Positions 16,466 through 55,132 of a stretch of 64,000 bases of DNA are shown in pieces. Under the pieces are notes generated by a model that was not told the origin of the DNA, did not search any database, and saw only the letters and a program-made list of their open reading frames with translations. The first letter of the stretch is position 1, and each line of letters starts with the position of its first letter. Where the stretch lies: assembly GCA_017403825.1 (NCBI GenBank), contig JAFRDO010000010.1:20401-84400 (forward strand). The letters are read 5' to 3'. The translations under genes were made by a program, and so were the position numbers. This DNA is from Kiritimatiellia bacterium. Its GTDB lineage: Bacteria > Verrucomicrobiota > Kiritimatiellia > RFP12 > UBA1067.

Positions 16466-18499
16466 ATGAACATCAAAAGCATACTGATCGCGACCTCGCT
16501 GATGGCGCTTGGCGCTTCGGCGGCCGATGTGTCCTACCCCTACACACCAGGCAACACCAACCCCGGCGCGGGCGTGACAATCGCCTTCGACGGCGACAAC
16601 AACATCACGTCGATTTCGGCGACGCCGACGGACGGCGGCTCGATTACCCTAACCGGCGGCGCTCCGACATTCGCAGCCGGCGCAACGATTACAGTGAATG
16701 CCCCGGGTTCGCTCGTGTTCACCGGACCGGCGACGGCGAATGGTGCGCTCGCCATAAACCGTGGTGACGACGCATACCTTGCCTGGTCGTCCGACACGGC
16801 CTTGAACGGCACTCTTACGGAGAGTCCGTGCTTTACCGGCCTATCCAGCACCGATCGCGATGAAGGAAGAATCGAGTTTTTCAGGCTTGTCTCGACAGGC
16901 CCTACAGACGACAATAACGTTTTCGGCCAACAGGGGCATTGGAATCTGATTACCTATACAGGATCCGGAATCTTTCAGTTCAACAAGGTATCGGCCGCTT
17001 ATGCGTTCACTGCCCGCGTTCAGCTCGGCCCTAAAACGTCCGGCGAGAACAATCTGTACGCTCGTTGCCTCAACGCCATCCGCTCGCCACGTTTCGGCCT
17101 TTACCCCGATGAAGAGGCTGGATGGGCGACGCTCAACATGTATAATGCGTGGAGCGGGAAAGCCCATCATACCGAACGCGGGCGGTATAACATCACAGAT
17201 TCTTACGGCACGGGTCTGGGTTCGACGGAGAACCTTGGCTTCCGGAAGATAATCATACGCCGCACAACCGTTCCCAACGGCCCGGTGTCTGTTCGTTTCA
17301 ATGGTGGCGCAACGCTTGGCTCAGAAACCACGATTGGCGCGGGGCTTGAGGCGGTGTTTGTGGCGACGGCCACCGATGCCGTTTCGCTTGGAAGTGCAAT
17401 TTCCGGCGATGGAGACCTCAGAATCGAGACGGCGTCGTCCGACGCGACTACGACGCTTGACTGTGATATGTCGGGCCTTGTCGGCGGAAAATTCACCATC
17501 GAGGGAAAAGACAACGCTATCCACACGGTCATGCGGACTGCAGACACGAAGTTTCCATCTGGTGGCGAAGTGCATATCAACACCAACGCCATCCTCACCC
17601 TCTATGGCAACACGGTAAGCACAAGTTATGCCTGGAAGCAGTCGCTGTTCGTGCATCGCGGTGGAACGCTGAAGACTATAGACAAGACCTGGCAAATCAG
17701 GCCCAAGCAGCAGATTATGCTCGATGGCGGTACATTCAACGTCCGCAACGGAGTGTTCTACCTCAACTACCTGGTTCTTTCAAATGCAACCATGAACGGC
17801 ACATCATCGCCGCGCTCGGTTTACAATGAATCGTCCGGGCAGTACTGGCGGGTGATAGGCACCGAGCCTTCGTATCTGACAAGTACGTATGGTGTTAACG
17901 TTTATGGGGCCTCCAGCAAGAGTTCCGCCGTCCCGTTCAGATTAGATGTCGGGGATGTGGCGGATGGAGTCGATTGCTTCATGAGTCGCATTACTTGTGA
18001 CACGGGCGGTACGAACGTTCCGTGGTTCTGGTTCGAAAAATATGGAGCGGGCACACTTAAGATTTCCGAGAATTCGAAGGGCGTGCGCATGGAGTCGAGG
18101 ATTTACAACGGAACTCTGCTATTGGCAGGAAACAGTATCATGACGAACGAGGTGCAACTGTTGGGCGGTAATTTCGCGATAGATGCAGGAAAGTCCAACG
18201 CCCTCGGAAACCTCACGGCGACCACCAATGCAACGCTCACGGTTGGGGCGGGTGGTTCTCTGTCGTTCGCGTCATTCACGCCGGGTGCGGGTCTGGCAGA
18301 GAAATCAATTGTCATTGACGCGCCGATGGAAGGGAATCTCGTTAGAATTGGCACGAACGGCAACGGTCTTGCGGCAGAGCATTGCAAATACTTCCGCTGG
18401 AAGGACGCTACGGACGCGACAAAACTCTGGCGCGTGGAGCAGGATGCTGACGGATATCTACATCCATCGATAAAGGGCGTAGTGATACTCGTTTATTGA
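16466..18499 (+). CDS. Large secreted PATR-repeat protein, paralog 2
   Basis: It has the signal peptide MNIKSILIATSLMALGASA. Its N- and C-terminal modules are shared with 6377..8818, including the terminal 'FRWKD...D.DGYLHP' followed by a hydrophobic strand. Confidence 0.6.
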   Translation: MNIKSILIATSLMALGASAADVSYPYTPGNTNPGAGVTIAFDGDNNITSISATPTDGGSITLTGGAPTFAAGATITVNAPGSLVFTGPATANGALAINRGDDAYLAWSSDTALNGTLTESPCFTGLSSTDRDEGRIEFFRLVSTGPTDDNNVFGQQGHWNLITYTGSGIFQFNKVSAAYAFTARVQLGPKTSGENNLYARCLNAIRSPRFGLYPDEEAGWATLNMYNAWSGKAHHTERGRYNITDSYGTGLGSTENLGFRKIIIRRTTVPNGPVSVRFNGGATLGSETTIGAGLEAVFVATATDAVSLGSAISGDGDLRIETASSDATTTLDCDMSGLVGGKFTIEGKDNAIHTVMRTADTKFPSGGEVHINTNAILTLYGNTVSTSYAWKQSLFVHRGGTLKTIDKTWQIRPKQQIMLDGGTFNVRNGVFYLNYLVLSNATMNGTSSPRSVYNESSGQYWRVIGTEPSYLTSTYGVNVYGASSKSSAVPFRLDVGDVADGVDCFMSRITCDTGGTNVPWFWFEKYGAGTLKISENSKGVRMESRIYNGTLLLAGNSIMTNEVQLLGGNFAIDAGKSNALGNLTATTNATLTVGAGGSLSFASFTPGAGLAEKSIVIDAPMEGNLVRIGTNGNGLAAEHCKYFRWKDATDATKLWRVEQDADGYLHPSIKGVVILVY

Positions 18500-39892: not shown

Positions 39893-40758
39893 CCGGCAGG
39901 AAGGCGAGAATCGCGGTCATCGGCCTTGTGGGCAAGTCGATGTTCTTTGAAGTCCCGCGTTTCCACATGGGCGGCGAGACAGTTCACGCCAACGGATTCC
40001 ACGAGGAGTGGGGCGGCAAGGGCTTCAACCAGGCTGTCGCGGCGTCACGCCAAGGGGCGGAAGTCGCGTTTCTAGGCGCGACGAGCATGTCGGACTCGAA
40101 GCCACTGACGGACTTCTGCAATAAAGAGGGACTGCACGCGACGATTGCGGCAAAACCAGAACCGACCGCATGCGCTGCAATCATGACTGACGGCACTGGC
40201 GAGACGCGCGTCACGGTCTATCCCGGCGCACGGCTCGAAGCGGCTGACGTCAGCGAGTTCGCGGCGGCAATTGCGGCGGCTGACTTTCTGCTTCTCAACA
40301 ACGAAGTTCCTGACGCGGTGAATCTCCGTGCCTCCGAGATAGCCGAAGCACACGGCGTGAAGATAATATTCAATCCCGCGCCTGCGCATCAGATTCCGGC
40401 AGAAGTCAGACGACGAGTCTCGCTTTTCACCCCAAACGAATTCGAAGAAACCGAGATGGGCGAAGCCAGTTGCGACGTCGTGACGACACTGGGCGCCAAA
40501 GGCTGCCGGATCCGCTCGACCGGCGAAGTCGTCCACGCGCCGCCGGCGGACGCCGTGGATTCCACAGGCGCAGGCGATACGTTCACCGGTGTCTTGGCGG
40601 TGCGCCTTGCCGAGGGCGAAAGCTTGCGCGACGCCTGTGCGGCGGCAAACGAAGCGGCGTCGCTGGAAACGACAGTACGCTATGTGCTATCAGCCATACC
40701 GAAAAGAGCGGCCTATTCCCACTCTATCGTCGCAGGCGGCTTGGAGGAGATGTCGTAG
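39889..40758 (+). CDS. PfkB-family carbohydrate kinase (ribokinase-like)
   Basis: The GTG start overlaps the preceding stop (GTGA). 'GGKGFNQAVAASRQGA' is the ribokinase GG motif and 'DSTGAGDTFTG' is the anion-hole/catalytic motif. Confidence 0.8.
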   Translation: MTGRKARIAVIGLVGKSMFFEVPRFHMGGETVHANGFHEEWGGKGFNQAVAASRQGAEVAFLGATSMSDSKPLTDFCNKEGLHATIAAKPEPTACAAIMTDGTGETRVTVYPGARLEAADVSEFAAAIAAADFLLLNNEVPDAVNLRASEIAEAHGVKIIFNPAPAHQIPAEVRRRVSLFTPNEFEETEMGEASCDVVTTLGAKGCRIRSTGEVVHAPPADAVDSTGAGDTFTGVLAVRLAEGESLRDACAAANEAASLETTVRYVLSAIPKRAAYSHSIVAGGLEEMS

Positions 40759-42269
40759 ACAACGCGGTTGATGCCGCGAACCTCGTTTATGATCCTGTTC
40801 GATATGGTCGCAAGCGTATCGTACGGCAGCCGCGTCCAGTCCGCCGTCATCGCGTCGATGGAGTTGACGCACCTGATTGCGCAGGTGTATTCGTAAGTGC
40901 GCTGGTCGCCCATCACGCCGACGGAACGGCACGGCAGCAGTACGGCGAACGCCTGCCAGATCTTTCCGTAGTCGGGCAGCTTGCGCACTTCCTGCTGAAC
41001 CCGCAAGTCGGCTTCCTGCAGAAGACGCACCTTTTCCGCGTTGACCTCGCCCAGCACTCTCACTCCAAGCCCAGGCCCGGGGAACGGCTGCCGGCTGAGA
41101 AGCGACTCGTCCATTCCCAGAATGCGGCCGACAGCGCGCACCTCGTCCTTGAAGAGGTCGCGCAGCGGCTCGACGAGCGAGAACTTGAGGTCCGGCGGAA
41201 GGCCGCCGACGTTGTGATGGCTCTTTATCGTCTGCGAAGGCCCGTTTACGGAGCTTGAGCTCTCTATGACGTCGGGGTATATCGTGCCCTGCGCAAGGAA
41301 CCGGCAGTTCTGGAACTTGCGTGCCTCTTCGGCAAACACCGTGACGAATTCGCGGCCGATTATCTTGCGCTTCGTCTCAGGATCTTCCGCGCCGCAAAGC
41401 GCCTTGTAGAACCGTTGCGCCGCATGCGCCACATGCAGGTCAAGCCCGAGTTTCCCAGCGAACATGGCCTCCACCTCAGCAGCCTCGCCGTGGCGAAGAA
41501 GCCCGTTGTCCACGAAGATGCAGTGAAGCCGCTTCCCGATGGCCTTGTTGAGCAGCACGGCTACAACTGACGAATCCACTCCGCCGGAAAGCCCGAGAAT
41601 GACATGCTCGTCGCCGATCTCAGCCCGAAGCTTCGCGACCGAATCCTCTATCCACGTTCCCATATCCCAATCCGCCCGACACCCGCAGATGGCGAAAACG
41701 AAGTTGGAGATGATTTTCTCTCCGAACTGGGTGTGGGCGACTTCGGGGTGGAACTGAAGCGCGTAGAATCGGCGGGACTCGTCGCACGCCGCAGCATACG
41801 GACAGTTCTCGCTCGAGGCGGCGGGCTTGAACCCGGCAGGCAGTTCCGCCACCCTGTCGCCGTGGCTCATCCACACGACAAACTTCTCCGGCAGGCCGGC
41901 AAACATCCCGCTCGCACAATCGGCCTTTAGCTCGGCCTTGCCGTACTCCCGCACCGTCCCGGCAACGACCTTACCGCCGAGCGTCTGTGCCATGAGCTGC
42001 ATTCCATAGCAAATCCCGAGTACCGGCACTCCGAGCTCGAATATCTCTCGGTCTATGGACGGCGCCCCGTCCGCAAAGACGCTGTTGGGGCCGCCGGAAA
42101 GGATTATGCCCTTGGGCATGTCGGCGCGAAGGCTTTCCGCCGTCGTGCCGAACGGCAGTATTTCCGAATAGACGTGATGCTCCCTGATGCGGCGGGCGAT
42201 GAGGTGCGTATACTGCGAGCCGTAGTCGAGTATGACTATGCGCTGACGGGCCGATTCTGTGTTCTTCAT
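40713..42269 (-). CDS. guaA: GMP synthase (glutamine-hydrolysing)
   Basis: It has a class I GATase domain ('ILDYGSQYTHLIARRIRE', catalytic 'GICYGMQLM'), an ATP-PPase 'SGGVDSSV' P-loop and the canonical C-terminus '...PPATIEWE'. Confidence 0.95.
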   Translation of the reverse strand: MKNTESARQRIVILDYGSQYTHLIARRIREHHVYSEILPFGTTAESLRADMPKGIILSGGPNSVFADGAPSIDREIFELGVPVLGICYGMQLMAQTLGGKVVAGTVREYGKAELKADCASGMFAGLPEKFVVWMSHGDRVAELPAGFKPAASSENCPYAAACDESRRFYALQFHPEVAHTQFGEKIISNFVFAICGCRADWDMGTWIEDSVAKLRAEIGDEHVILGLSGGVDSSVVAVLLNKAIGKRLHCIFVDNGLLRHGEAAEVEAMFAGKLGLDLHVAHAAQRFYKALCGAEDPETKRKIIGREFVTVFAEEARKFQNCRFLAQGTIYPDVIESSSSVNGPSQTIKSHHNVGGLPPDLKFSLVEPLRDLFKDEVRAVGRILGMDESLLSRQPFPGPGLGVRVLGEVNAEKVRLLQEADLRVQQEVRKLPDYGKIWQAFAVLLPCRSVGVMGDQRTYEYTCAIRCVNSIDAMTADWTRLPYDTLATISNRIINEVRGINRVVYDISSKPPATIEWE

Positions 42270-42272
42270 ATC

Positions 42273-45200
42273 TTATCTCCGATTAGAGACCGGCAGTACC
42301 TTTGAGAACCGCGGACGGACATTCGCCCAGTCTGCGACAAGACGCTTCGCCTTCGGCGAGCCGGTGCGTGAAACGTGCTCTTCGAGAAGCGCAAGTATCT
42401 CGCCGTCCGCCCCCGCTTCCACGGGGAAGATGTCGACGGAATCGAGGTTGCAGTTCAGGTCGAGCGTCGCCGTTTCATCGTATACGTAGGCGACGCCGCC
42501 TGTCATGCCGGCTGCGAAGTTCACGCCGACCGGCCCGAGAATGACGGCTACGCCTCCGGTCATGTATTCGCAACCGTGGTCGCCTATGCCCTCGACGACA
42601 AGCGTGGCGCCGGAGTTGCGGATGCCGAAACGCTCGCCTGCGAGTCCGTTGATGAAGATCGCGCCGGATGTCGCGCCGTAGGCTATGACGTTGCCGGCGA
42701 TTGCGTTGTCTTCCGGACGGAAGGCCGAGGCGTCCGAATTGTCAGGCGTTTCCGGCGGACGTATCGTTATCACGCCGCCTGAAAGAGACTTTCCAACGTA
42801 GTCGTTCGCCTCTCCACGCAGGTTGAATGTCACTCCGCTGGCAAGGAACGCGCCGAACGACTGTCCGGCGACGCCAGTGAAGCCTACGGTTATCGGATTG
42901 CCGTACGCAGCATGGTCGACAAGCCTTGCTTTCGCGATATGGCCCGAAAGCGCCGCGCCGACGGAGCGGTCGCAGTTTGATATGCGGCGTTCGAGAACAG
43001 TTTCGCCGTCCGCCTTGAGATGCGGCAGCAACTCGCGCATATCGTAGTTTTGCGAGCTGTTGGACTTCTCAGGAACATCCGGATTCTCAGGAAGGTCCGG
43101 CGCTGCTGTCATCGCCGAGAAGTCGAACCGCGAGCCTTCCTTGGTCTTCAGCAGGTCTGCCCGTCCGCGAGCCTCCGCAAGGGACTTCAGCCCTAGCGAC
43201 GCCAGGATCTCGCGCACCTCTTCGGCAAGGAAGCGGAAGTAACGCTGAAGGTGCTCCGGCTTTCCGGCGAACTTCGCCCGAAGCTCCCCCTTCTGCGTGG
43301 CTATTCCCACGGGACAGCAGTTGAGGTTGCAGTTGCGGCACTGTACGCACCCGAGCGAAACGAGCATGGAAGTTCCGAACGCGAACTCGTCCGCGCCGAG
43401 CATCGCGGCAATGACGATGTCGCGTCCTGTGCGGAGCTGTCCGTCCACCTGAAGCTTCACGCGATGGCGCAGGTTGTTCTTGACGAGCGTCTGGTGCGCC
43501 TCGGCTAGCCCCGGCTCCCACGGAATCCCTGCGTGCTTCATGGAAGAGAGCGGCGCCGCGCCGGTTCCGCCGTCAAAGCCTGAGACTACCACCACGTCGG
43601 CATGCGCCTTTGCGACGCCGGCCGCAATGGTGCCGACGCCGGCTTCCGAAACGAGCTTCACGGAGACGCGCGCCGCGGGGTTGGTGCACTTGAGGTCGTA
43701 AATAAGCTGCGCCAGGTCCTCTATGGAATAGATGTCGTGATGCGGCGGAGGCGAGATGAGCGTCATGCCCGGCTTTGCGTGGCGGAGTCGGGCGACGAAC
43801 TCATCGACCTTGTGCGCCGGAAGCTGTCCGCCCTCGCCCGGCTTGGCGCCCTGCGCAAGCTTGATCTGCAGGTCCTTGGCGGAGCAGACGTACTCGACTG
43901 TCACGCCGAAGCGGCCGGACGCGACCTGCTTGATGGCGCTGTTCTTGTCGGTGCAGAAGCGCTCCGGGTTCTCGCCGCCTTCGCCCGAGTTGGACATCGT
44001 GCCGAGTCCGTTGAGGGCCAGCGCGATCGTCTCGTGCGCCTCTGGCGAAAGCGAGCCGAGCGACATGGCCCCGCCGACGAAGTGCTTCACGATGGAATCG
44101 ACCGGCTCGACTTCGGAGAGACCTGTGGATTCTCCGGACTTGAATTCAAGTTGCGACCTCAGCGTCACTCTGCTTGAGTTGTCGATGTCGTCGGTGTAGC
44201 GCTTGAAGCGGGCGTAGTCGTCATGCCGCACCGCCTCTCGAAAATCCACCACGCGCTGAGGCGTCCAGATATGCTCCTCGCCGCCGATGCGGTAGCGGTA
44301 CTCGCCGCCGACATCAACCTTCGCGCTCCTTGCGGCATTTGCTACCAAGGCATTCTCGATGTCTTCCAGCTCCAGGCCGCCGACAGGCGAGACGACACCG
44401 CCGAAGTAGTCGCGCATGAGCTTCGGACCGAGCCCGACCGCCTCGAAGATTCGTGCGGAGCGGTAGGAACGCAAGGTCGAAATGCCCATCTTGGACATAA
44501 CCCGCATTATGCCCTTGCAAACGGCCGTGACGTAGTTCGCTGCCGCGGTAGTGCTGTCGGCCTTTACAAGGTCCGACACCGTCTCAAGCGCAAGCCAGGG
44601 ATTCACCGCCGTAGCGCCGAAGCCCAGCAGCACCGCAAAATGATGAACTTCGCGTACCTCTCCCGATTCGACTACGATGCCAACCGACGGACGCATGCCC
44701 GCCTCCACAAGCACCCTGTTGACCGCCGCGACGGCGAGCAAGGACGGAATCTCGCACTTCTCACTTGCAATGTCCTTGCAGCGGTCAGAAAGAATGATTA
44801 TCTTCGCTCCCTCCCTGACCGCCTTTAGCGCGTCGGCGGCAAGGGCGTTGAGCGAGGCTTTCAGTCCGCGCCCTGCATCGGGCAGCAGCCCGGAAGCCGG
44901 CTCGAAGAACAGCGGCAGCGTCTTCGCCGGGAACTCCGGAATGTTCCTCATCCGTTTCAGCTCGTCGTCCGTCAGCACCGGACGGGTCATCTTCACGAGC
45001 CGCGCGTGTTCCGGCGTCTCCGCGAGAATGTTCCCCTGGTTGCCGATGTACGTCATGATCGACATCACGAGCTCTTCGCGGATCGGATCTATCGGAGGGT
45101 TCGTCACCTGCGCGAATAGCTGGTGGAAGCAGCCGAAAAGATGGCAGGCGTTATGGAGCCGCGACTTATCCGAACGCGCCGCAAGGCACGCAAGCGCCGC

Positions 45201-46727
45201 ATCGTTGCCCATTGCGCCGACGGGTTCGCTTCCAGTCTCTGCCATCGGACGAAGTATAAGCTCGATGTCCTCCAGCGTGTAGCCGAAGCGTCGCTGGTCG
45301 CGCAGGAGCGCGTCGCGTCCGCTTTCGCCGTCGGGAAGCTTCGACGGCACGATTTCGGTGAAAAGCCCGGTGACTGGAATGTGGTTCTCCTTCACCCAGC
45401 GGCGATAGGGGCGACGGCGGGCGTAGAACGTCTTGATCTCCGCATCCTCCATGAGACGGTGGTTCGCAAGGTCAAGCCAGATGAGCGAACCGGGCTTGAG
45501 GCGTCCGTGACGGGCAACTGCTTCCTGCGGTATGTCAAGCACGCCAGTTTCGGAGGCAAGCACGAACAACCCGTCCTTGGCAAGCGTCCAGCGTATGGGA
45601 CGCAAGCCGTTGCGGTCCAACGCCGCACCGAGGCTCACACCGTCAGTGAACGCGATCGCAGCCGGGCCGTCCCACGGCTCCATAAGCGCGGAGTGGTATT
45701 CGTAGAACGCACGGACATCGTTGCCCATGTGGTACTTCGCGCCCCATGCCTGCGGAACAAGCATCATCATCGCGTGCGGCGCATCGCGTCCGGCGGCAAC
45801 AAGCAGCTCGAACATGTTGTCGAGCGAAGCCGAATCGCTCTGCCCCTGATGGACCACGGGCAGGAGCTTCTTCAGCTCGTCGCCGAAGAGCAGCGAAGCG
45901 AGCGAGGCTTCACGCGCGGCCAAGGCGTTCAGGTTGCCCTTAAGCGCGTTGATCTCGCCGTTGTGCGCGATGGCGCGGAACGGGTGCGCGAGTTCCCACG
46001 ACGGGAACGTGTTCGTGGAGTAGCGCTGATGCACGATTGCAAACGGCGAGACGAAATCCAGATCAGAAAGATCGGGGTAGAACTTCTCGATCTGTGTTGC
46101 CAGAAGAAGCCCCTTGTAGACGATCGTGCGCGACGAGCACGAGCATACGTAGGTTTTCTCCGTCGCCTTCTCGACCTGCCGTCGAATGACATAGAGCCGA
46201 CGCTCGAACGCTGAATTATTTCTGCTCCCTGCGTCCTTTGCGGCTATGAAAATCTGCCTGATTTGCGGCATGACTTTTCTCGCATCACGACCAATCGCAC
46301 TTGGATCAGTCGGAACATCGCGCCAAGCCAGCACTTCGCACCCCTCGGCGCAAATTTCCGATTCTATCTTCTTCTCTTCGCCCTCTCCGCCGAAGATCAT
46401 GGCAACGCCGAACAATTCACCGTCTGAGACCTTCACACCCTTTGCGGACAAGACCTTCCGGAAGAACCCATGCGGAATCTTAAGCAACAGCCCTGCGCCG
46501 TCGCCAGTATTGGGGTCATTGCCCGTCGCGCCGCGGTGCATGAGCCGCTTGAGTATCGTCAAGCCGGATACGACGATTTCGTGGCTAGCCTCCCCCGAGA
46601 GGTTCGCCGCCATTCCCACTCCGCACGCATCGTGCTCGTATTCGCTCCTGTACAAGCCCTGACCGGTCGGACTATCCGTGTCGTTTGTTCGTTGCATATG
46701 GAAAAGTATTAGCACACCCCGTGCCAT
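42273..46727 (-). CDS. gltB: Glutamate synthase large subunit (Fd/NADPH-GOGAT alpha chain)
   Basis: It has the N-terminal Ntn amidotransferase 'HDACGVG', and the central, FMN-binding and C-terminal GXGXG domains are collinear. The mature start may be the internal Met at 46697. Confidence 0.95.
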   Translation of the reverse strand: MARGVLILFHMQRTNDTDSPTGQGLYRSEYEHDACGVGMAANLSGEASHEIVVSGLTILKRLMHRGATGNDPNTGDGAGLLLKIPHGFFRKVLSAKGVKVSDGELFGVAMIFGGEGEEKKIESEICAEGCEVLAWRDVPTDPSAIGRDARKVMPQIRQIFIAAKDAGSRNNSAFERRLYVIRRQVEKATEKTYVCSCSSRTIVYKGLLLATQIEKFYPDLSDLDFVSPFAIVHQRYSTNTFPSWELAHPFRAIAHNGEINALKGNLNALAAREASLASLLFGDELKKLLPVVHQGQSDSASLDNMFELLVAAGRDAPHAMMMLVPQAWGAKYHMGNDVRAFYEYHSALMEPWDGPAAIAFTDGVSLGAALDRNGLRPIRWTLAKDGLFVLASETGVLDIPQEAVARHGRLKPGSLIWLDLANHRLMEDAEIKTFYARRRPYRRWVKENHIPVTGLFTEIVPSKLPDGESGRDALLRDQRRFGYTLEDIELILRPMAETGSEPVGAMGNDAALACLAARSDKSRLHNACHLFGCFHQLFAQVTNPPIDPIREELVMSIMTYIGNQGNILAETPEHARLVKMTRPVLTDDELKRMRNIPEFPAKTLPLFFEPASGLLPDAGRGLKASLNALAADALKAVREGAKIIILSDRCKDIASEKCEIPSLLAVAAVNRVLVEAGMRPSVGIVVESGEVREVHHFAVLLGFGATAVNPWLALETVSDLVKADSTTAAANYVTAVCKGIMRVMSKMGISTLRSYRSARIFEAVGLGPKLMRDYFGGVVSPVGGLELEDIENALVANAARSAKVDVGGEYRYRIGGEEHIWTPQRVVDFREAVRHDDYARFKRYTDDIDNSSRVTLRSQLEFKSGESTGLSEVEPVDSIVKHFVGGAMSLGSLSPEAHETIALALNGLGTMSNSGEGGENPERFCTDKNSAIKQVASGRFGVTVEYVCSAKDLQIKLAQGAKPGEGGQLPAHKVDEFVARLRHAKPGMTLISPPPHHDIYSIEDLAQLIYDLKCTNPAARVSVKLVSEAGVGTIAAGVAKAHADVVVVSGFDGGTGAAPLSSMKHAGIPWEPGLAEAHQTLVKNNLRHRVKLQVDGQLRTGRDIVIAAMLGADEFAFGTSMLVSLGCVQCRNCNLNCCPVGIATQKGELRAKFAGKPEHLQRYFRFLAEEVREILASLGLKSLAEARGRADLLKTKEGSRFDFSAMTAAPDLPENPDVPEKSNSSQNYDMRELLPHLKADGETVLERRISNCDRSVGAALSGHIAKARLVDHAAYGNPITVGFTGVAGQSFGAFLASGVTFNLRGEANDYVGKSLSGGVITIRPPETPDNSDASAFRPEDNAIAGNVIAYGATSGAIFINGLAGERFGIRNSGATLVVEGIGDHGCEYMTGGVAVILGPVGVNFAAGMTGGVAYVYDETATLDLNCNLDSVDIFPVEAGADGEILALLEEHVSRTGSPKAKRLVADWANVRPRFSKVLPVSNRR

Positions 46728-46758
46728 AACAGAGGAGACGGCAAAACTGCCAGCAGCT

Positions 46759-46881
46759 TTACATAGAATGTAAAACCGACTTACATGCCATTACATCATG
46801 TCGCAAGCATTGAATTGACGGGCTGGCAATACAAGCGGGGAGTGCGTAACGGGCATGGGCAAAGTCTTACATTGCGTGTAA
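46759..46881. promoter_or_regulatory. Two copies of the palindrome TTACA-N5-TGTAA (46759-46773, 46867-46881) in the divergent gltB / glnN intergenic region; the first overlaps a TGTAA-N7-TTACA arrangement (46769-46785)
   Basis: This is a direct sequence observation. A third copy lies upstream of carA at 52254-52268. Confidence 0.4.
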
Positions 46882-46991
46882 TCTCATGGCCAATTTCAAA
46901 TGTCAGGCGGCTTTGGCACGCTATGTGCTAGCATATTCACGTGGACGGCAGATGCGATAACCGCGTCCCTCCCTGAAAGGAAAACGAAAAA

Positions 46992-49112
46992 ATGACAGAA
47001 GAAACAAAGGCGGCAACCGACTTCGGCGCCGACGTGTTCGGCGAAGAGGCGATAAGGACATACCTCAGCAAGGATACGGCAAAGAAGCTCCAGGCGACGA
47101 TACGCGAGGGCAAGCCTCTCGACCCCTCCATCGCCGGCGAAGTCGCGCATGGAATCCGCCACTGGGCGATGGACCGCGGCGCCACCCACTACACGCACTG
47201 GTTCCTTCCGATGACCGGCGCCACCGCCGAGAAGCACGACTCCTTCCTTGAGCTCAAGGACGGCGAACCGATCATGCAGTTCAGCGGCAAGAACCTCATC
47301 ATGGGCGAGCCGGACGCCTCGTCGTTCCCGTCGGGCGGCATTCGTTCCACGTTCGAGGCGCGCGGCTACACGGCATGGGACCCGACATCGCCTGCGTTCA
47401 TCAAGCGCCACTCCAACGGTGCGACCCTGTGCATTCCCACCGCGTTCTGCGCCTACACCGGCGAATCTCTCGACAAGAAGACACCCCTTCTCAGGTCCAT
47501 GCAGGCGCTCGACAAGTCGCTCAAGCGCCTGATGAAGCTGTTCGGGCGCGGCGAAGCGCACACAGGCTGCACCCTCGGCGCGGAGCAGGAATACTTCCTC
47601 ATCGACAAGGAGTTCTGGAAGAAGCGTCCGGACCTCGTGCTGACGGGCCGCACGTTGTTCGGTGCGCCGTCCGCAAAGGGCCAGCAGCTTGAGGACCACT
47701 ACTTCGGCACGATCCCCGACCGCATACTGTCCTTCATGAACGACGTCGAGCGCGAGCTGTGGAAGCTTGGAATCCCGGCAAAGACGCGCCACAACGAGGT
47801 TGCGCCGGCCCAGTTCGAGCTCGCCCCCCAGTTCGAGGAGCTGAACCTCGCCAGCGACCACAACATGCTGGTGATGGACGCCCTCAGGAACGTCGCGGAG
47901 AAGCACGGACTCAAGTGCCTCCTCCACGAGAAGCCCTATGCAGGCGTGAACGGGTCAGGCAAGCACAACAACTGGTCGGTCGCCTATGGCGGGCGGAACC
48001 TTCTCGATCCCGGGAGCGACCCGCACGAGAACGCCGTCTTCTTGACGATGCTCTGCGCAGTCATAGAGGCCGTGGACAAGCACGCAGACCTCCTGCGGGC
48101 GTCCGTCGCCAGCGCCGGCAACGACCACCGTCTCGGCGCGAACGAGGCCCCACCCGCCGTTATCTCCATCTACGTGGGCGACCAGCTCGCGGAAGTGCTT
48201 GAGCGCATAGAGAACCCGAAGAGCGCCAAGCACGAGGCGAAGGGAACGCTCAAGATCGGCGTTGACACGCTCCCGGCGATTCCGAAGGATGCGACAGACC
48301 GCAACCGCACGTCGCCCTTCGCCTTCACCGGCAACAAGTTCGAGTTCCGTGCGCCGGGATCGAGCGTCTGCTGCTCCGGTCCGATGACCGTCCTGAACAC
48401 GATAGTCGCAGAGGCCGTAGACCGCATTTCCGGCGAGCTTGAAAAGGCCCTCGCCAAGGCAGGCTGCCCCAAGCCCGCGGCATACAAGCCCGGCGAGCAC
48501 ACCGCAGCGTTCCACGCGGCGCTCCAGAAGATTCTGCAGGCGTCCCTCAAGGAGCACAAGCGGGTCGTGTTCAACGGCAACGGATACGAGGCCGAATGGC
48601 CGAAGGAAGCGGCGAAGCGCGGGCTCCCCAACGCGCCCGACACGCCGACCGCTCTCGCCGCCCTCGCCGACAAGAAGAACGCCGCGCTTTTCGAGAAGTA
48701 CGGCGTGATGACGAAGCGCGAACTGCAGAGCCGCCACGAAATCTTCCTGGAGGAATACGCGAAGAAGATCCGCATCGAAGGCGCGTGCGCATGCGACATC
48801 GCCCGGACGATGATCCTTCCGGCGGTCCGCAGCGACTACCTCGAAGTGCTGAGGACGTACAACGAGACCGGCGAGAGCGACATGAAGTTCGCGCTCAACA
48901 TGCTGCACGAGCAGGTGTACGCGCTTGGCAACGGGCTGGTAGCCCTCGAAGACGCCATCTCGCGCCTGTCGGACGCGGTGGCGAACGGGGACGCAAGCGA
49001 GACTGTCGCGAGGATGTCCGAGCTCAGGAAGATTTCCGACGGGCTCGAACAGGTCGTGTCCGATTCGCGCTGGCCGCTTCCGAAGTACCGCGACATGCTG
49101 TTCCTGTACTGA
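46992..49112 (+). CDS. glnN: Glutamine synthetase type III
   Basis: The ~700-aa length and collinear GSIII blocks ('HYTHWFLPMTG', 'NGSGKHNNWS', 'DRNRTSPFAFTGNKFEFR') support the call. Confidence 0.9.
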   Translation: MTEETKAATDFGADVFGEEAIRTYLSKDTAKKLQATIREGKPLDPSIAGEVAHGIRHWAMDRGATHYTHWFLPMTGATAEKHDSFLELKDGEPIMQFSGKNLIMGEPDASSFPSGGIRSTFEARGYTAWDPTSPAFIKRHSNGATLCIPTAFCAYTGESLDKKTPLLRSMQALDKSLKRLMKLFGRGEAHTGCTLGAEQEYFLIDKEFWKKRPDLVLTGRTLFGAPSAKGQQLEDHYFGTIPDRILSFMNDVERELWKLGIPAKTRHNEVAPAQFELAPQFEELNLASDHNMLVMDALRNVAEKHGLKCLLHEKPYAGVNGSGKHNNWSVAYGGRNLLDPGSDPHENAVFLTMLCAVIEAVDKHADLLRASVASAGNDHRLGANEAPPAVISIYVGDQLAEVLERIENPKSAKHEAKGTLKIGVDTLPAIPKDATDRNRTSPFAFTGNKFEFRAPGSSVCCSGPMTVLNTIVAEAVDRISGELEKALAKAGCPKPAAYKPGEHTAAFHAALQKILQASLKEHKRVVFNGNGYEAEWPKEAAKRGLPNAPDTPTALAALADKKNAALFEKYGVMTKRELQSRHEIFLEEYAKKIRIEGACACDIARTMILPAVRSDYLEVLRTYNETGESDMKFALNMLHEQVYALGNGLVALEDAISRLSDAVANGDASETVARMSELRKISDGLEQVVSDSRWPLPKYRDMLFLY

Positions 49113-49152
49113 TGGCTGACGGCTTCGCCTGCCGCAGCGGTTCCGCACGACC

Positions 49153-50511
49153 ATGCAACGGATACACGACATATACAGGCCGAAGGACGAACGCAAGGGC
49201 GACTTCAAGGAAGTCGAGCTCGTCCTTTCGGACAGCGAGCTGAAGGAGCAGGTCTCGCGCTGCATGAACTGCGGACAGCCGTTTTGCCACGCATACGGCT
49301 GTCCGCTAGGCAACCTCGTGCCGGACCAGAACCGCGCCGTGGCGCAGGGCGACTGGCGGAGGGCATACGACCTTCTCTCGGCAAACTCCGACTTCCCCGA
49401 ATTCACGTCGCGCATCTGTCCTGCGCTCTGCGAAGCGTCGTGCGTTCACGGCCTCGACGAAGAGGCCGTGATGATCCGCCAGTCCGAGAAGCGCATAATA
49501 GAAACGGCTTTCGGCAACGGCTGGGTCGTGCCGCAACCGCCGGAGAGGGAGAACGGCAAGTCCGCCGCGATAATCGGAGCCGGTCCTGCCGGGCTCTCCG
49601 CCGCCGTCACCCTGAGGCGCAAGGGCTGGCGCGTCACGGTTTACGAAAGACGCAACGACATCGGCGGGCTTCTCCGCTACGGCATTCCCTGCTTCAAGCT
49701 CGACAAGGCGCTCATCGACCGTCGCCGCAAGATACTGGAAGCGGAAGGCATACGCTTCGTGACCGGCATAGAGGTAGGCAAGGACATCTCCGCGGAATGG
49801 CTCGCAAAGCAAAACGACGCCGTCGTCGTCGCCATCGGCACGCCCGCCGCCCGCGACTTGAAAATACCAGGACGCGAACTTGCGGGCGTACATCTTGCCC
49901 TTGAGCTTCTCGAAGGACAGAACAGGTTCCTGACAGGCGAAATCGCCGCGCCGCCGATCGACGCCAACGGCAAGAACGTGCTTGTGATCGGAGGCGGCGA
50001 CACTGGCAGCGACTGCGTAGGCACAGCAATACGCCACGGCGCCGCAAGCGTCACGCAGATAGAGATAATGCCGAAGCCGCCGGAGGAGCGCGACGCCTCG
50101 ACGCCATGGCCGCTCTGGCCGTATATGCTCCGTACCAGCTCAAGCCACAAGGAAGGTTGCGAAAGACGCTGGAATCTCAACTCACTGCGTTTTGTCGGGG
50201 AAGGACATGTCGCCGGAGTTGAAGTAGAAACCGTCAAATGGGAGATTTCGCCCGAAGGCCGCCCGTTGAAATTCAGCTCTGTTCCGAACACGAAGGAAGT
50301 CATCAAGGCGGATCTCGTGTTTCTCGCTATGGGCTTCACCGGCGTTCCTAAGGACAATCCGATAGTTGCGCAGCTCGGCCTAGCGCAGACGCCGCGCACC
50401 GCGCTCGTGTCCGCCCCGGAGCGCGGCATCTGCTGCGTCGGCGACTGCGCGTCCGGCGCGTCGCTTGTAGTCCGCGCCCTAGCCAGCGGCAAGGCCTTGC
50501 CGATCTGCTGA
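49153..50511 (+). CDS. gltD: Glutamate synthase small (beta) subunit, NAD(P)H-dependent
   Basis: It has the 'RCMNCGQPFCH' Fe-S cluster motif and two dinucleotide-binding motifs ('IIGAGPAGLSAA', 'VIGGGDTGSDC'). Confidence 0.9.
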   Translation: MQRIHDIYRPKDERKGDFKEVELVLSDSELKEQVSRCMNCGQPFCHAYGCPLGNLVPDQNRAVAQGDWRRAYDLLSANSDFPEFTSRICPALCEASCVHGLDEEAVMIRQSEKRIIETAFGNGWVVPQPPERENGKSAAIIGAGPAGLSAAVTLRRKGWRVTVYERRNDIGGLLRYGIPCFKLDKALIDRRRKILEAEGIRFVTGIEVGKDISAEWLAKQNDAVVVAIGTPAARDLKIPGRELAGVHLALELLEGQNRFLTGEIAAPPIDANGKNVLVIGGGDTGSDCVGTAIRHGAASVTQIEIMPKPPEERDASTPWPLWPYMLRTSSSHKEGCERRWNLNSLRFVGEGHVAGVEVETVKWEISPEGRPLKFSSVPNTKEVIKADLVFLAMGFTGVPKDNPIVAQLGLAQTPRTALVSAPERGICCVGDCASGASLVVRALASGKALPIC

Positions 50512-50515
50512 AATC

Positions 50516-52219
50516 ATGTCTGACGACCTAAAGCACGAATGCGCCGTAGCGATGGTGGTCTTGCAAAAGCCACTTCCCTCCGGCGAGCGTTCGCGCCCAG
50601 ACGATGTCTCCGCCGCAAGCGACATTGGCGGCACGAAACTGTCGCTTCTTCTGGAGAAGCAGCACAACCGCGGACAGGACGGCGCGGGCGCGGCAATCCT
50701 CGCCGCCGATCCCGAGCCGGGCGAGACGCCTTACTGGATCGGCAAGTCCGCGTCAGCCACGCCGCTTGCCGACGTTCTGGGCATGATTGCCAAGCGGGGA
50801 CGGAACAATGCTGACGAACGCATCTTCCTCGGCCATCTCCGTTACGCAACGTTCGGCAGGAACGACGCCGCCTTCTGCCACCCGTTCGTCCATGAGGCGA
50901 GCGAGCTTAGCCATACCCTCATTCTCGCAGGCAACTTCAACCTCACGAACGCCGCAGAGCTTTTCGAAGACTACAGGCGGCACGGGTCCTTTCCGACGAG
51001 CAAGTCCGACGGTTACCTCATTACCGAACTCGTCGCCCATGAGATCGAGCGCGGCAACACGCTCGCCGAAGCGCTCTCGAAGGTGCTTGCAGGCGCAGAC
51101 GGCGCCTGGACGCTCTGTGGAATGACTGGCGACGGGTGGGCGTTCGCGACGCGCGACCCTCACGGAATAAGGCCCGGCTACTGCTACATCGACGAAAACG
51201 TGGTCGTCGTCGCAAGCGAACGTCCGGCCATACAGGCGGCCTTCGACGTTCCGCCAGAAGCCGTGAAGGAACTGCCGCCGGGCGAAGCGCTCGTCGTTTC
51301 TCCCGCAGGCGAAGTCCAGCAGACAAGACTGGATTTGGGCATCGACCCCGCCCCACGCCCTTGCTCCTTCGAACGCATCTACTTCTCGCGCGCCAACGAC
51401 GCCGACATCCACCGCGAACGCAGGGCCCTTGGCGCCGCGCTCCTGCCGCAGATACTGGAAGCCGCCGCCGCGCCGCTGGAAGACGTCTTTTTCAGCTACA
51501 TTCCCAACTCGGCGCGAATCGCGTTCCACGGGCTGCTGGAAGAACTGTTCGAGAGGGTTTCGGCTTCTTCAAACCATGCAATTCCTCGCTTCGGCGAAAT
51601 CGCCGTCAAGGACGCAAAGTTCCGAACCTTCATTGCAGATGCAGCCGCGCGTCGCGAGTTCTACAAGCACGTATACGACGTTACATACGGGCTGGTCCGC
51701 CCCGACAAGGACACGCTGGTCGTCCTTGACGACTCAATCGTCCGCGGCAACACGATGAAGAACGCAATCCTGCCGATGCTTGACCGGCTCGGCCCAAAGC
51801 GCATCGTCATCGCCTCTTCCGCGCCGCCAATCCGCTACCCGGACTGCTATGGCATTGACATGTCGACGCTTCGCGAACTTGTCGCGTTCCGTGCGCTCGT
51901 CAACCTGCTTGGAAAGAACGCGGAAGTCGAAGAACTGCGGCAAGCCGCTTCGTTCCCAGGGAATCCCCTCGAGGCCCTCTACGCCCGTTTCACCGACGCG
52001 GAACACACCGCCGAGATCGCAAGGCTCCTCACGCCGCCCGGCATGAAGGCCGAAGTCGCCGTCGTGTACCAGACCGTCGAGTCGCTGCGGAAATGCCTGG
52101 CCCCTTCTACTATCGGCGACTGGTACTTCACCGGCAACTATCCGACGCCCGGCGGCTACAGGGTTCTCCACAAGGCACTTGCCAACTACCTGGAACACAG
52201 GGCAGAACGGTCTTACTAG
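50516..52219 (+). CDS. purF: Amidophosphoribosyltransferase-like class II glutamine amidotransferase (long form)
   Basis: A short propeptide precedes the catalytic Cys ('KHECAVAMV'). The PRTase motif 'VVLDDSIVRGNT' and 'SSAPPIRYPDCYGIDM' match PurF. It is longer than classical PurF, like Bacteroidetes-type enzymes. Confidence 0.75.
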   Translation: MSDDLKHECAVAMVVLQKPLPSGERSRPDDVSAASDIGGTKLSLLLEKQHNRGQDGAGAAILAADPEPGETPYWIGKSASATPLADVLGMIAKRGRNNADERIFLGHLRYATFGRNDAAFCHPFVHEASELSHTLILAGNFNLTNAAELFEDYRRHGSFPTSKSDGYLITELVAHEIERGNTLAEALSKVLAGADGAWTLCGMTGDGWAFATRDPHGIRPGYCYIDENVVVVASERPAIQAAFDVPPEAVKELPPGEALVVSPAGEVQQTRLDLGIDPAPRPCSFERIYFSRANDADIHRERRALGAALLPQILEAAAAPLEDVFFSYIPNSARIAFHGLLEELFERVSASSNHAIPRFGEIAVKDAKFRTFIADAAARREFYKHVYDVTYGLVRPDKDTLVVLDDSIVRGNTMKNAILPMLDRLGPKRIVIASSAPPIRYPDCYGIDMSTLRELVAFRALVNLLGKNAEVEELRQAASFPGNPLEALYARFTDAEHTAEIARLLTPPGMKAEVAVVYQTVESLRKCLAPSTIGDWYFTGNYPTPGGYRVLHKALANYLEHRAERSY

Positions 52220-52253: not shown

Positions 52254-52268
52254 TTACATCAGATGTAA
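52254..52268. promoter_or_regulatory. TTACA-N5-TGTAA palindrome upstream of carA (third copy of the motif)
   Basis: The site TTACATCAGATGTAA lies about 60 nt upstream of the carA ATG. Confidence 0.4.
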
Positions 52269-52328
52269 GAAGAAACGCTCTGACAGGCGGAATCCGGCTT
52301 GGCACAGAATGTGCTAAATTAATTTTGT

Positions 52329-53504
52329 ATGGACTATCTTGAGAAGTGGAAACGCGAGCGCGAACGCAAGGCGTTCCTTGCGCTTGACGACGGTTCAGTA
52401 TTCCATGGAGTGGCATTCGGCGCAGAGAAGGAGGCGTTTGGCGAAGTCGTCTTCAACACCGGCATGAGCGGTTATCAGGAAATACTGACCGATCCCTCCT
52501 ACGCCGGGCAGTTCGTCACCCTTACCACTGCCGAAGTCGGCAACTACGGAATCAATGGCGCGGACACGGAAAGCCGCGCTCTTTTCTTATCGGGGCTAGT
52601 GATAGGCGACTTGACCGCGCCAAGCAACTGGAGAAGCGAGAAGAGCCTTGACGACTACCTCAAGGAGAACGGCATACCTGGCATCTACGGCGTCGATACC
52701 CGTGCGCTTGCCCTGCACATAAGAGAGCACGGCAACAGAAAAGCCCGCCTTGTCCTCGGTGATGGTTCGAACGGTTCTATCGATGCCGAGAGCTTGGAAA
52801 GACAGGCCGTCGCCAAGGCCTGCGAATGGGAAGGCCTCGACGGACAGGACTACGCGGCAAAGGTGACGTGCGAAGAAGCCTACGAATTTGGCGCGACACA
52901 AGAAACTGGAGACTCTGGGCGCAAAAAGCCACATATCGTCTGCTATGACTTCGGTGTGAAGACCAACATATTGCGCTCACTCGCGGCATGGGCGCGCGTG
53001 ACGGTCGTGCCGGCGAAGACTACTGCCGAAGACGTTATGGCAATGCGGCCTGACGGAGTTTTTCTATCCAACGGCCCTGCCGACCCCGCGGCCGTCACCT
53101 ACGCCATAGAGAACATTAGAAAGTTATTGGGTTTGGAGTGGAGGAGTGCACCCACTCATCCACTTCCCATAATGGGAATCTGCCTTGGGCATCAGCTTCT
53201 CGCCCTTGCCTGCGGCGCGAAGACGGCGCGGCTCAAGTTCGGGCACCACGGCTGCAACCATCCGGTGAAGAACCTCTTGACGGGCAAGGTCGAAATCACG
53301 AGCCAAAACCACAACTTCGCCGTCGTCGCTGACTCGCTGCCTAACTGCCTTGAGGTGACGCACGTCAACCTCAACGACGGAACGATCGAGGGAATCCGCC
53401 ACAAGACGCTCCCCGCGTTCTCGGTGCAGTACCATCCGGAGGCGTGTCCGGGCCCGCACGACAGCGCCTACCTCTTCGGGGAATTCAGGAAGATGATCCC
53501 ATGA
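52329..53504 (+). CDS. carA: Carbamoyl-phosphate synthase small (glutaminase) subunit
   Basis: The CarA N-domain ('[11 protein letters not shown]...NTGMSGYQE') is followed by the GATase domain with the catalytic 'GICLGHQLL'. No carB follows it. Confidence 0.9.
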
Positions 53505-55132
53505 AAAAGCAAGTCAAATACGTCTTCATCACCGGCGGCGTGGTAAGTTCCCTCGGCAAGGGCGTGACAAGCGCGTCGCTCGCACTGCTCCTGAAGAGCC
53601 GCGGGTACAAGGTGTTCATGCAGAAGCTCGACCCTTACCTCAACGTCGACCCCGGTACGATGTCGCCATACCAGCACGGCGAGGTGTTCGTGACGGACGA
53701 CGGAGCGGAGACGGACCTTGACCTCGGCCACTACGAGCGCTTCGCAGACGTGACCTGTACCAAGGCTAGCAATTATACGTCTGGACGAATCTACTCCGCC
53801 GTCCTCGCCCGCGAACGCGCCGGCGGATACCTCGGCGGAACGGTTCAGGTCGTGCCGCACGTCACGGACGAGATCAAGGCGGCGATCCGTTCGGCCGGCG
53901 AGCACGACTGCGACATCGTGCTTTGCGAAATAGGCGGCGTCTCCGGCGACATCGAGTCGCTGCCGTTCCTTGAGGCGGCGCGGCAGTTCCGCTTCGAGGA
54001 GGGAAGCGAAAACACGTGCTTCATGCACCTCACGCTCGTGCCATACCTCAAGGCCGCGGGCGAGCTGAAGACGAAGCCGTCGCAACATTCCGTCGGAATG
54101 CTCCGCAACATCGGCATAATCCCCGACATTCTCGTCTGCCGCACGGAGATGCCGATACCCGAGGAACACATGCAGAAGCTCGCCATGTTCTGCAACGTCC
54201 GCAGGGAATGCGTCATCGAGGAAAAGGATGTGGCGGACTCGGTCTACGCCGTGCCGAGGGAATTGCGCAAGCAGGGGCTGGACGAACAGGTGCTGCGCCA
54301 GCTGCACCTTGACATCTGGCCCATAAAGCATACGGTGTGGGACACGCTCGTCAGGAAGACGACGCAACCGAAGAAACGCTGCAAGATCGCGCTCGTCGGC
54401 AAGTACATCGCCATACGCGACGCCTACAAGTCAATTCATGAAGCGTTGCAGCACGCTGGCATGGCAAAGGACTGCAAGGTGGAGGTCGTGCCGGTCGAGG
54501 CGGAGGAAATCGCGTCCGCAAAGAACGCAACGGCCGCAAAGATGCTGGGCGGCGTGGACGGCATACTCGTGCCCGGCGGCTTTGGGTCGCGCGGCGTGGA
54601 GGGGAAGATCGCGGCTATACGGTACGCCCGCGAGCACCGGATCCCCTTTCTCGGCATCTGCCTGGGAATGCAGTGCGCGGTCATTGAGTATGCGCGGGAT
54701 GTCCTCGGCTGGGCGGACGCCAACTCGACGGAGTTCGACGAGGAGACGTCGCATCCCGTCATCGACCTCATGGAGGAGCAGCGCGGCATAACGCAGAAAG
54801 GCGGCACCATGCGCCTCGGCGCGTATCCATGCGCATTGAAGAAGAACTCTCTCGCCGCCAGGCTGTACAAGGCGAAATCCATCTCCGAGCGACACCGCCA
54901 CCGTTACGAACTGGCGAACGAGGGCGAGGCGAGGGCTGCGCTCGTCGAGGCCGGACTGCAGGTTTCAGGCGTTTCACCCGATGGCAAGCTGGTCGAAGTC
55001 GTGGAACTGCCGAAGCACCCGTACTTCATCGCATGCCAGTTCCACCCGGAGTTCAAGTCACGCCCGACCGCACCCCATCCGCTCTTCCTCGGCCTCGTCG
55101 CCGCAGCGCTGAAGAAGAAGTCAAGCCGTTAG
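53501..55132 (+). CDS. pyrG: CTP synthase
   Basis: The ATGA start overlaps the carA stop. '[16 protein letters not shown]' is the canonical PyrG N-terminus, and the C-terminal GATase has 'GICLGMQ'. Confidence 0.95.

Follow-up and report, generated by a model that had tools for sequence, protein, structure and literature searches.

Promoters of the sigma-54 type are opened by their holoenzyme only with the help of an AAA+ enhancer-binding protein (bEBP), which in nearly all cases contacts sigma-54 through a GAFTGA loop. This general principle, a sigma-54 enhancer together with its bEBP, is well known. In the classical systems, NtrC and NifA act from enhancers at about -100 to -150, activators of the NtrC type usually need two or more sites, and the GAF domain of NifA binds 2-oxoglutarate or is controlled by PII. 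TnrA and GlnR are MerR-family proteins that act at sigma-A promoters through a 17-bp TGTNA-N7-TNACA box. Here, we analyzed a stretch of 64,000 nucleotides (the window) of contig JAFRDO010000010.1 from a bacterium of the Kiritimatiellia, which are common, and almost entirely uncultured, in rumen and hindgut communities. An earlier reading of its letters (the original prediction) had noticed a palindrome, TTACA-N5-TGTAA, recurring three times before operons of glutamine metabolism, and had proposed it as a candidate operator of a nitrogen regulon. Our analysis indicates that the palindrome is very probably a promoter-proximal upstream activating sequence (UAS), or enhancer, and the predicted binding site of a NifA-like sigma-54 bEBP.

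On recheck, the coordinates and sequences of the three palindromes were exact, and all three sites are intergenic, in promoter regions. By searching the whole window with the pattern TGGCAC-N5-KTGCW, we also detected sigma-54 -24/-12 elements, which the original prediction had overlooked. Three matches were found against 0.16 expected, each paired with one palindrome, and the gap between palindrome and promoter was 31-32 bp in all three pairs. The elements are as follows.

46759-46773, no strand: palindrome A, TTACATAGAATGTAA, predicted activator site proximal to the gltB promoter, gap 32 bp
46711-46726, minus strand: sigma-54 -24/-12 promoter of gltB-guaA, TGGCACGGGGTGTGCT, gap 32 bp to palindrome A
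46867-46881, no strand: palindrome B, TTACATTGCGTGTAA, predicted activator site proximal to the glnN promoter, gap 32 bp
46914-46929, plus strand: sigma-54 -24/-12 promoter of glnN-gltD-(purF-like), TGGCACGCTATGTGCT, gap 32 bp to palindrome B
52254-52268, no strand: palindrome C, TTACATCAGATGTAA, predicted activator site of the carA promoter, gap 31 bp
52300-52315, plus strand: sigma-54 -24/-12 promoter of carA-pyrG, TGGCACAGAATGTGCT, gap 31 bp to palindrome C
46781-46795, no strand: two directly repeated TTACA half sites, TTACATGCCATTACA, 22 bp from the centre of palindrome A

When the T of TGGCAC is counted as position -26, the centre of each palindrome falls at about -66. Palindromes A and B, 108 bp or about ten helical turns apart, share the divergent region between gltB and glnN: A is centred at about -66 of the gltB promoter and distally, at about -174, of the glnN promoter, and B is centred at about -66 of the glnN promoter and at about -174 of the gltB promoter. 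Dinucleotide-preserving shuffles of the window, which has 60% G+C, gave 0.00 expected exact matches against the three observed. No further site appeared in the window when one mismatch was allowed (0.19 expected), and palindromes with two mismatches were at background level (8 observed, 5.4 expected). No sigma-70-type promoter was detected in the divergent region, and positions 46600-47100 matched no Rfam family. Because sigma-54 promoters require an AAA+ activator and the palindrome lies upstream of them at a fixed distance, we take it to be a UAS and not a repressor operator; the operator reading had to be given up, as the sites are phased upstream of -24/-12 promoters and do not overlap them. 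The extra TTACA half sites that had been noticed beside palindrome A are indeed present, at 46781-85 and 46791-95. Secondary sites at other loci fall at about -98, and none of them corresponds to these half sites, which possibly form a weak accessory site of uncertain status.

We compared the glnN locus with its closest relatives, with loci designated by L numbers. The nearest GlnN proteins are encoded by a Kiritimatiellia metagenome-assembled genome (MAG; L001, 87% identity), a Kiritimatiellia MAG from horse faeces (L002, 74%) and a mislabelled MAG (L003, 72%); the identical protein is present in an ENA gut metagenome assembly. These matches assign the window to Kiritimatiellia of the gut, within the PVC group that the original prediction had in mind. 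The original prediction had made its case hang on conservation in orthologous promoters, and a palindrome with a sigma-54 promoter precedes glnN in L001, L002 and L003. The sites in these relatives, with their gaps to the sigma-54 promoter, are listed below.

L001, glnN: TTACATTTCCTGTAA, gap 98 bp
L001, glnN: CGACAAAATGTGTCG, gap 64 bp
L002, gltB of the divergent pair: TTACATAAATTGTAT, gap 31 bp
L002, glnN of the divergent pair: TTACACTAATTGTAA, gap 20 bp
L003, glnN: TTACATTTTCTGTCA, gap 43 bp
L003, PII gene (glnK) followed by amtB: TTACGGGATCTGTAA, gap 32 bp

In an alignment of the regions upstream of glnN from ten lineages, the sequence has diverged except in three places: the palindrome, the sigma-54 element (TTGGCAC-N5-GTGCT) and a short hairpin in the leader. 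The TTACA palindrome is absent upstream of glnN in Fibrobacter, Lentisphaeria, Victivallaceae, Opitutales, Akkermansia and the distant Kiritimatiellia locus L019, and some distant GlnN relatives have a sigma-54 promoter before glnN with other palindromes or with none. Since these distant relatives lack the palindrome, the TTACA motif is specific to one clade.

We then scanned JGI metagenome contigs for TTACA-N5-TGTAA followed by any 17-46 bases and then TGGCAC-N5-KTGCW. Neither the gap length nor the gene that follows is fixed by this search; genes were assigned by clustering of the first open reading frame and by NCBIfam checks. At least 120 stretches were obtained, and all metagenome counts given in this text are counts among the matches listed. 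Nitrogen genes lay downstream of 76 sites (71 unique contexts), and 47 matches preceded other genes. The downstream genes encoded PII in 20 cases and were gltD in 13, glnN in 11, carA in 7, gdhA, for NADP-dependent glutamate dehydrogenase (GDH), in 6, purF in 5, gltB, asnB and dapF in 3 each, the GAF-bEBP gene and pyrG in 2 each, and carB, amtB and a purF-like gene in 1 each. Thus, in metagenomes the motif is enriched before amtB/PII, glnN and gdh, which answers a test that the original prediction had itself proposed. Its proposal of a dedicated nitrogen-regulon cis-element stands, given conservation in relatives and further metagenome sites before gltBD, carAB, pyrG, purF, asnB and dapF. The -24/-12 element is likewise kept in the relatives and in the 76 nitrogen-gene promoters.

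The gap between palindrome and sigma-54 element was distributed as follows.

20-22 bp: 7 matches
31, 32, 33 and 34 bp: 9, 33, 20 and 5 matches, respectively
40 bp: 5 matches, four of which form one dnaK group
43, 44 and 45 bp: 6, 12 and 4 matches, respectively
any other value: 0-3 matches each

At 75 of the 76 nitrogen-gene sites the gap was 21-22, 31-34 or 43-45 bp, a phasing of about 11 bp, with a gap of 40 bp as the sole exception, whereas the 47 non-nitrogen matches were scattered over all gaps. In a Rayleigh test with period 11, R was 0.89 (p ~4e-25) at the nitrogen-gene sites and 0.29 among the other matches; metagenome sites share descent, so such p-values overstate their independence, but the contrast with the internal background is still plain. 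Such dependence on the face of the helix characterizes activators that must touch the polymerase. Off-phase matches, namely the dnaK group at gap 40, a gene resembling TonB receptors at gap 42 and singletons, were counted as background or as other systems.

Outside the core, W is favoured before TTACA, and an A-rich stretch follows TGTAA on the promoter side. In about a dozen promoters, those of purF, some glnN, gdhA, dapF and PII genes, a second palindrome is centred 32 bp (three turns) farther upstream, at about -98. The AT fraction of spacers with gaps of 32 and 33 bp oscillates with maxima every ~10-11 bp (column-permutation p < 0.001 and 0.003, respectively). Judged from base composition, this periodicity suggests bent or easily bent DNA, which may help an activator ring at -66 to reach sigma-54 at -12/-24.

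No bEBP gene was found in the 64-kb window by its GAFTGA, ESELFGH and Walker A motifs, and no rpoN by its RpoN box, either in the window or in any fetched locus. Because the window contains neither a bEBP nor an RpoN box, the regulator was sought in relatives; judging from these, the window's own genome would encode both. In L002, gltB and the divergent genes glnN, purF-like, carA, pyrG and carB are followed by a convergent gene for a 511-residue bEBP (16657-18189, minus strand) with the Pfam domains GAF_2, Sigma54_activat, AAA_lid_14 and HTH_8. Its best NCBIfam match is NifA TIGR01817, with 436.3 bits, short of the cutoff of 528.85, and its best full-length relative of solved structure is NifA, 9qq6_C (E = 1e-95). 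An exact palindrome, TTACACTTTATGTAA, lies 13 bp before the ATG of this gene. The best candidate for the regulator is thus a GAF-AAA+-HTH_8 protein, in place of the MerR- or CRP-family protein suggested at first.

Orthologues of this bEBP with at least 60% identity were recovered in loci that had been fetched solely through the DNA pattern. The gene is directly preceded by a palindrome and a sigma-54 promoter in L107/L181 (gap 33) and in L142 (gap 54, equal to 32 + 22), has a palindrome at -97 in L147, and is the third gene of a dapF-aminotransferase operon under a palindrome and a sigma-54 promoter in L178/L161. To counter ascertainment bias, we added a protein search, which yielded 5216 homologues with E < 1e-100; the best 120 of these 5216 share 73% identity or more with the query, and two NCBI names among them are Kiritimatiellia MAGs. 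The JGI name for the orthologues is 'Nif-specific regulatory protein'. Three lineages on long contigs were fetched from this search: L201/L202 and L203 carry TTACAAnTTATGAAA, with one mismatch, across the start codon of the bEBP gene and just after a -10-like box, and L204/L205, one of the three independently sampled lineages, has no palindrome at this gene. Overall, the bEBP gene carries the palindrome in 7 of the 8 contexts examined, and the GAF-bEBP is the sole regulator gene downstream of a palindrome and sigma-54 promoter among the matches listed. This site at its own gene makes the bEBP the likely ligand of the palindrome. In some contexts the gene appears arranged for positive autoregulation, from a sigma-54 promoter; in others, where the site covers a sigma-70-type promoter and the start codon, the arrangement looks like negative autoregulation.

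Orthologues of the bEBP are also encoded near glnN in Lentisphaeria, Opitutales, Sedimentisphaerales, one distant Kiritimatiellia lineage and, as a copy that lacks the GAF domain, Fibrobacter. The predicted recognition helix reads SPRMM-x-Y in all proteins of the TTACA clade and TQRIILY in the Opitutales protein, whose sites in L009 are CGACA-N4-TGTCG. This paired difference in helix and site may represent a small piece of protein-site co-variation.

On this basis, we propose the following mechanism. A dimer of the GAF-AAA+-HTH_8 protein would bind both half sites, whose centres are 10 bp, or one helical turn, apart. The site would sit on a fixed face of the helix, with its midpoint ~66 bp before the start of a TGGCAC-N5-GTGCT promoter. 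The GAF domain would hold back the AAA+ domain; a change in the nitrogen/carbon signal would release it and let an active AAA+ ring assemble. Across the short, bendable spacer, the ring would approach from the correct face and contact the sigma-54 holoenzyme in its closed complex, and ATP hydrolysis would open the promoter. The operons switched on in the window would be gltB-guaA, glnN-gltD-(purF-like) and carA-pyrG; in relatives, glnK(PII)-amtB, gdhA, purF, asnB, dapF, carB and the regulator gene itself would be added. By analogy with NifA, the signal sensed may be 2-oxoglutarate or PII. What the sequences show are the sites and promoters, their phased spacing and conservation, the make-up of the regulon, and the link of the bEBP gene to it by neighbourhood and by its own site. 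Physical binding by the GAF-bEBP, sigma-54 dependence in vivo and the direction in which the regulon responds to nitrogen supply are inferred.

Among the known systems considered, the consensus sites of NtcA, CRP, TyrR, NifA and NtrC were tried, and none fits the palindrome in orientation and spacing. The protein shares with NifA of Klebsiella, Azotobacter and rhizobia the domain order GAF, AAA+ (Sigma54_activat), HTH_8, and it would resemble NifA in using a palindromic upstream site for which the helical face is important. However, the NifA site is TGT-N10-ACA at about -80 to -150, in contrast to TTACA-N5-TGTAA at about -66; no nif gene is found among the 76 target promoters, whose genes serve ammonium assimilation and glutamine-dependent biosynthesis; and the bEBP has no Cys-X4-Cys linker motif of the rhizobial type. 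Similar to NtrC of Proteobacteria, whose model promoter is glnAp2, the system would be a sigma-54 master regulon of glutamine synthetase, glnK-amtB and glutamate synthase, its regulator appears to be autoregulated, and some promoters have tandem sites 32 bp apart (-140 and -108 at glnAp2); this is a functional likeness and not membership. Unlike NtrC, the bEBP has a GAF sensor and no Response_reg receiver domain, and it scores 320 and 263 bits with the NtrC models (cutoffs 559 and 620). Because GAF takes the place of the phosphorylatable receiver domain, this is apparently a one-component system without an NtrB partner. The NtrC site, TGCACC-N5-GGTGCA, also differs, the site here lies much nearer the promoter, and the regulon is broader than that of enteric NtrC, with carAB, pyrG, purF, guaA, asnB, dapF and gdhA in addition; it thereby takes in most points at which biosynthesis consumes glutamine (carAB, pyrG, purF, guaA, asnB).

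The TnrA/GlnR systems of Bacillus resemble this one in being nitrogen regulons with a short AT-rich palindrome and TGTNA-like half sites, but here the half sites are oppositely oriented, the spacing is 5 bp and the promoters are of the sigma-54 type. TyrR and PhhR (boxes TGTAAA-N6-TTTACA) belong to the bEBP family and share the half-site letters TGTAA/TTACA. Their boxes are inverted in orientation relative to ours and differently spaced, TyrR has an ACT/PAS N-terminus instead of GAF, their targets are aromatic amino acid genes, and the bEBP found here reaches 256 bits against a TyrR cutoff of 576. Taken together, these comparisons indicate that the bEBP system works like NtrC at glnAp2, is built like NifA, and is a member of neither.

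The original prediction had likened the site to GlnR/TnrA boxes, and an operator for a MerR protein of that kind at a sigma-70-type promoter would suit targets in nitrogen metabolism. A formal TGTNA-N7-TNACA fit does overlap palindrome A, as had been described (TGTAA-N7-TTACA, 46769-46785), but such an overlap occurs at only 1 of the 71 unique sites, so the proposed architecture does not carry over to the other sites. Moreover, the sites precede the promoters instead of covering them, these promoters belong to the sigma-54 type with no sigma-70-like promoter in the divergent region, and the strict 11-bp phasing to the sigma-54 element marks an activator that faces the polymerase. The host also belongs to the PVC (Planctomycetes-Verrucomicrobia-Chlamydiae) lineage, whereas the known GlnR and TnrA proteins come from Firmicutes and Actinobacteria. 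We consider an operator of this kind highly improbable. That the motif, with only 10 specified bases, recurred by chance, or as repetitive or mobile sequence with no regulatory role, is of negligible likelihood: shuffles gave 0.00 exact matches, all three sites are equidistant from sigma-54 elements, the sites are kept across species with fully diverged flanks, and 33 metagenome matches share the gap of 32 bp where the background holds about 1-2 per gap value.

Several points weigh against the assignment of the palindrome to a NifA-like bEBP. Classical NtrC and NifA enhancers are farther from the promoter than a centre at -66, a single palindrome is present at most promoters although NtrC-type activators usually need more, and neither a bEBP gene nor rpoN lies in the window. 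To these may be added the lineage whose bEBP gene lacks the palindrome, the shared descent of the metagenome sites, and the sigma-54-contact loop, which reads GAFTDA in several orthologues (L002, L181, L142) and GAFTGA in L147 and L178. Another helix-turn-helix dimer could occupy the palindrome, with the bEBP acting from solution or from another site. Such a co-regulator, CRP/NtcA-like or architectural, would bend the DNA or serve anti-activation while the bEBP works elsewhere or without binding DNA. A lone site at -66 is unusual for a bEBP enhancer, a spacer with periodic AT content would equally suit a bending co-factor, CRP modulates some sigma-54 promoters in E. coli, and binding by the bEBP is itself predicted from sequence. 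However, the aligned glnN promoters show no other conserved element to serve the bEBP, its HTH_8 domain is intact, its own gene carries the palindrome in nearly all contexts, and the half sites misfit NtcA (GTA-N8-TAC) and CRP (TGTGA-N6-TCACA) in orientation and spacing. A co-regulator on the palindrome is thus unlikely, and we retain the NifA-like bEBP as its predicted ligand.

The position of the promoters also bears on the length of the mRNA leaders. The gltB ATG, at 46697, lies 13 nt past TGGCAC-N5-GTGCT, with a predicted 5' untranslated region of ~3 nt, and the carA ATG, at 52329, likewise lies 13 nt past TGGCAC-N5-GTGCT. With the ATG 13 nt past the element and a canonical sigma-54 start, the gltB and carA mRNAs are predicted to be near-leaderless, starting ~3 nt before the ATG. 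In the metagenomes, the ATG lies 12-15 nt past the sigma-54 element at 26 of the 76 promoters (L085, L093, L101, L105, L138, L168, L175 and others), and conserved N-termini confirm the start codons (PII MKLIIAYIQP..., GltD MQRIHDIYRP...). A -10-like box also precedes the start codon of some bEBP genes in the clade, at a distance of 7-9 nt. These spacings suggest that leaderless transcripts are common in this lineage.

A wider reading, which we offer tentatively, is that in Kiritimatiellia of gut and rumen a one-component GAF bEBP of the NifA type governs the entire glutamine economy, comprising ammonium uptake, the glutamine synthetase-glutamate synthase cycle (GS-GOGAT), GDH, and those steps of purine, pyrimidine, asparagine and carbamoyl-phosphate synthesis that need glutamine. 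It would act from a single palindrome at about -66, plus or minus one turn, as a short-range sigma-54 enhancer over a bent spacer, and about one-third of its promoters, including those of gltB and carA, would start 2-5 nt before the ATG, giving essentially leaderless transcripts.

The predicted target operons of the window are the following.

40713-46697, minus strand: operon gltB-guaA (gltB 42273-46697, guaA 40713-42269)
46992-52219, plus strand: operon glnN-gltD-(purF-like) (glnN 46992-49112, gltD 49153-50511, purF-like 50516-52219)
52329-55132, plus strand: operon carA-pyrG (carA 52329-53504, pyrG 53444-55132)

NCBIfam searches agreed with the first assignments of guaA (GMP synthase, 788 bits), gltB (glutamate synthase large subunit, 1597 bits), glutamine synthetase, gltD, carA and pyrG; the gene first called purF is only purF-like. 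The glnN product is a type III glutamine synthetase (Pfam GSIII_N). The product of 50516-52219 is a purF-like class II amidotransferase, with 144 bits against a purF cutoff of 350 and with Pfam GATase_6/7. A purF-like amidotransferase of 520-570 residues is encoded 3' of glnN in the window (after gltD), in L002 (9251-10807) and in L003 (4424-6067). In L088, the purF-like gene has its own palindrome and sigma-54 promoter, and regular purF occurs in these metagenomes as a separate gene (L092, L112).

Further features were observed upstream of glnN. The leader hairpin lies at 46951-46967 on the plus strand (GATGCG-ATAAC-CGCGTC; GGATGCGATGGTCGCATCC in relatives) and is the sole conserved leader element across L119, L126, L128 and L001. 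It could be a post-transcriptional control element; its stability relative to shuffles was not significant (z = -1.4), and it had no Rfam match. In the Lentisphaeria locus L006 (9630-9910), the leader downstream of a sigma-54-like promoter, TGGCACGCGAAATGCT, is ~280 nt long, contains two copies of GTCCTGCGGAGCAGGTA(G/C)CCGAG and might be a structured regulatory RNA. The Opitutales locus L009 (9669-9716) has two ACGACA-N4-TGTCGT palindromes, ACGACAATTTTGTCGT and GCGACATTTTTGTCGT, separated by 32 bp. They precede a sigma-54 promoter by ~130-180 bp, and a bEBP orthologue (52% identity) is encoded 6 kb away. The two palindromes are probably an equivalent enhancer at the classical distance with a diverged half site.

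Short intergenic repeats, tandem or dispersed, were seen beside regulon promoters in two relatives: in L003, ACTTAACC is repeated about five times at 2088-2126, with related copies near 6250-6300, and in L002, ATAAGCGATAAGTGA / CACTTATCACTTATAGCTTATCGC repeats occupy 18250-18340. The off-phase dnaK group comes from a different habitat, peat and soil contigs (L084, L099, L122, L192), where TTACAAACA(C/T)TGTAA is followed, after 40 bp, by TGGCACT(G/T)(C/G)CATTGCT. It is probably a separate sigma-54 chaperone regulon outside the nitrogen system; sigma-54 chaperone regulons of such a kind have been reported in Planctomycetota and Bacteroidota (PMC12316311).

Full-text searches of the literature returned no description of the motif, of sigma-54 regulation in Kiritimatiellia or of any other gene regulation in this class, which is also absent from a survey of sigma-54 regulons across phyla published in 2025. 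In the literature searched, we likewise found no description of the regulator assignment, the short-range geometry, the wide regulon or the apparently leaderless sigma-54 transcripts.

These findings provide a testable wiring diagram of nitrogen control. It consists of a site of 15 bp, a type of promoter, a candidate regulator and a regulon of about 15 gene families, the last predictable straight from metagenomes. The promoters form a natural series in which a bEBP, strictly phased, would act from a position ~40 bp ahead of the -24 element, useful for studying how AAA+ activators get to sigma-54 without long loops. They also point to a NifA architecture used outside nitrogen fixation; because that architecture serves beyond nitrogen fixation, the automatic annotation 'Nif-specific regulatory protein' is likely to be misleading in this clade. 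For the Kiritimatiellia themselves, the management of nitrogen is of practical interest for ruminant nitrogen efficiency.

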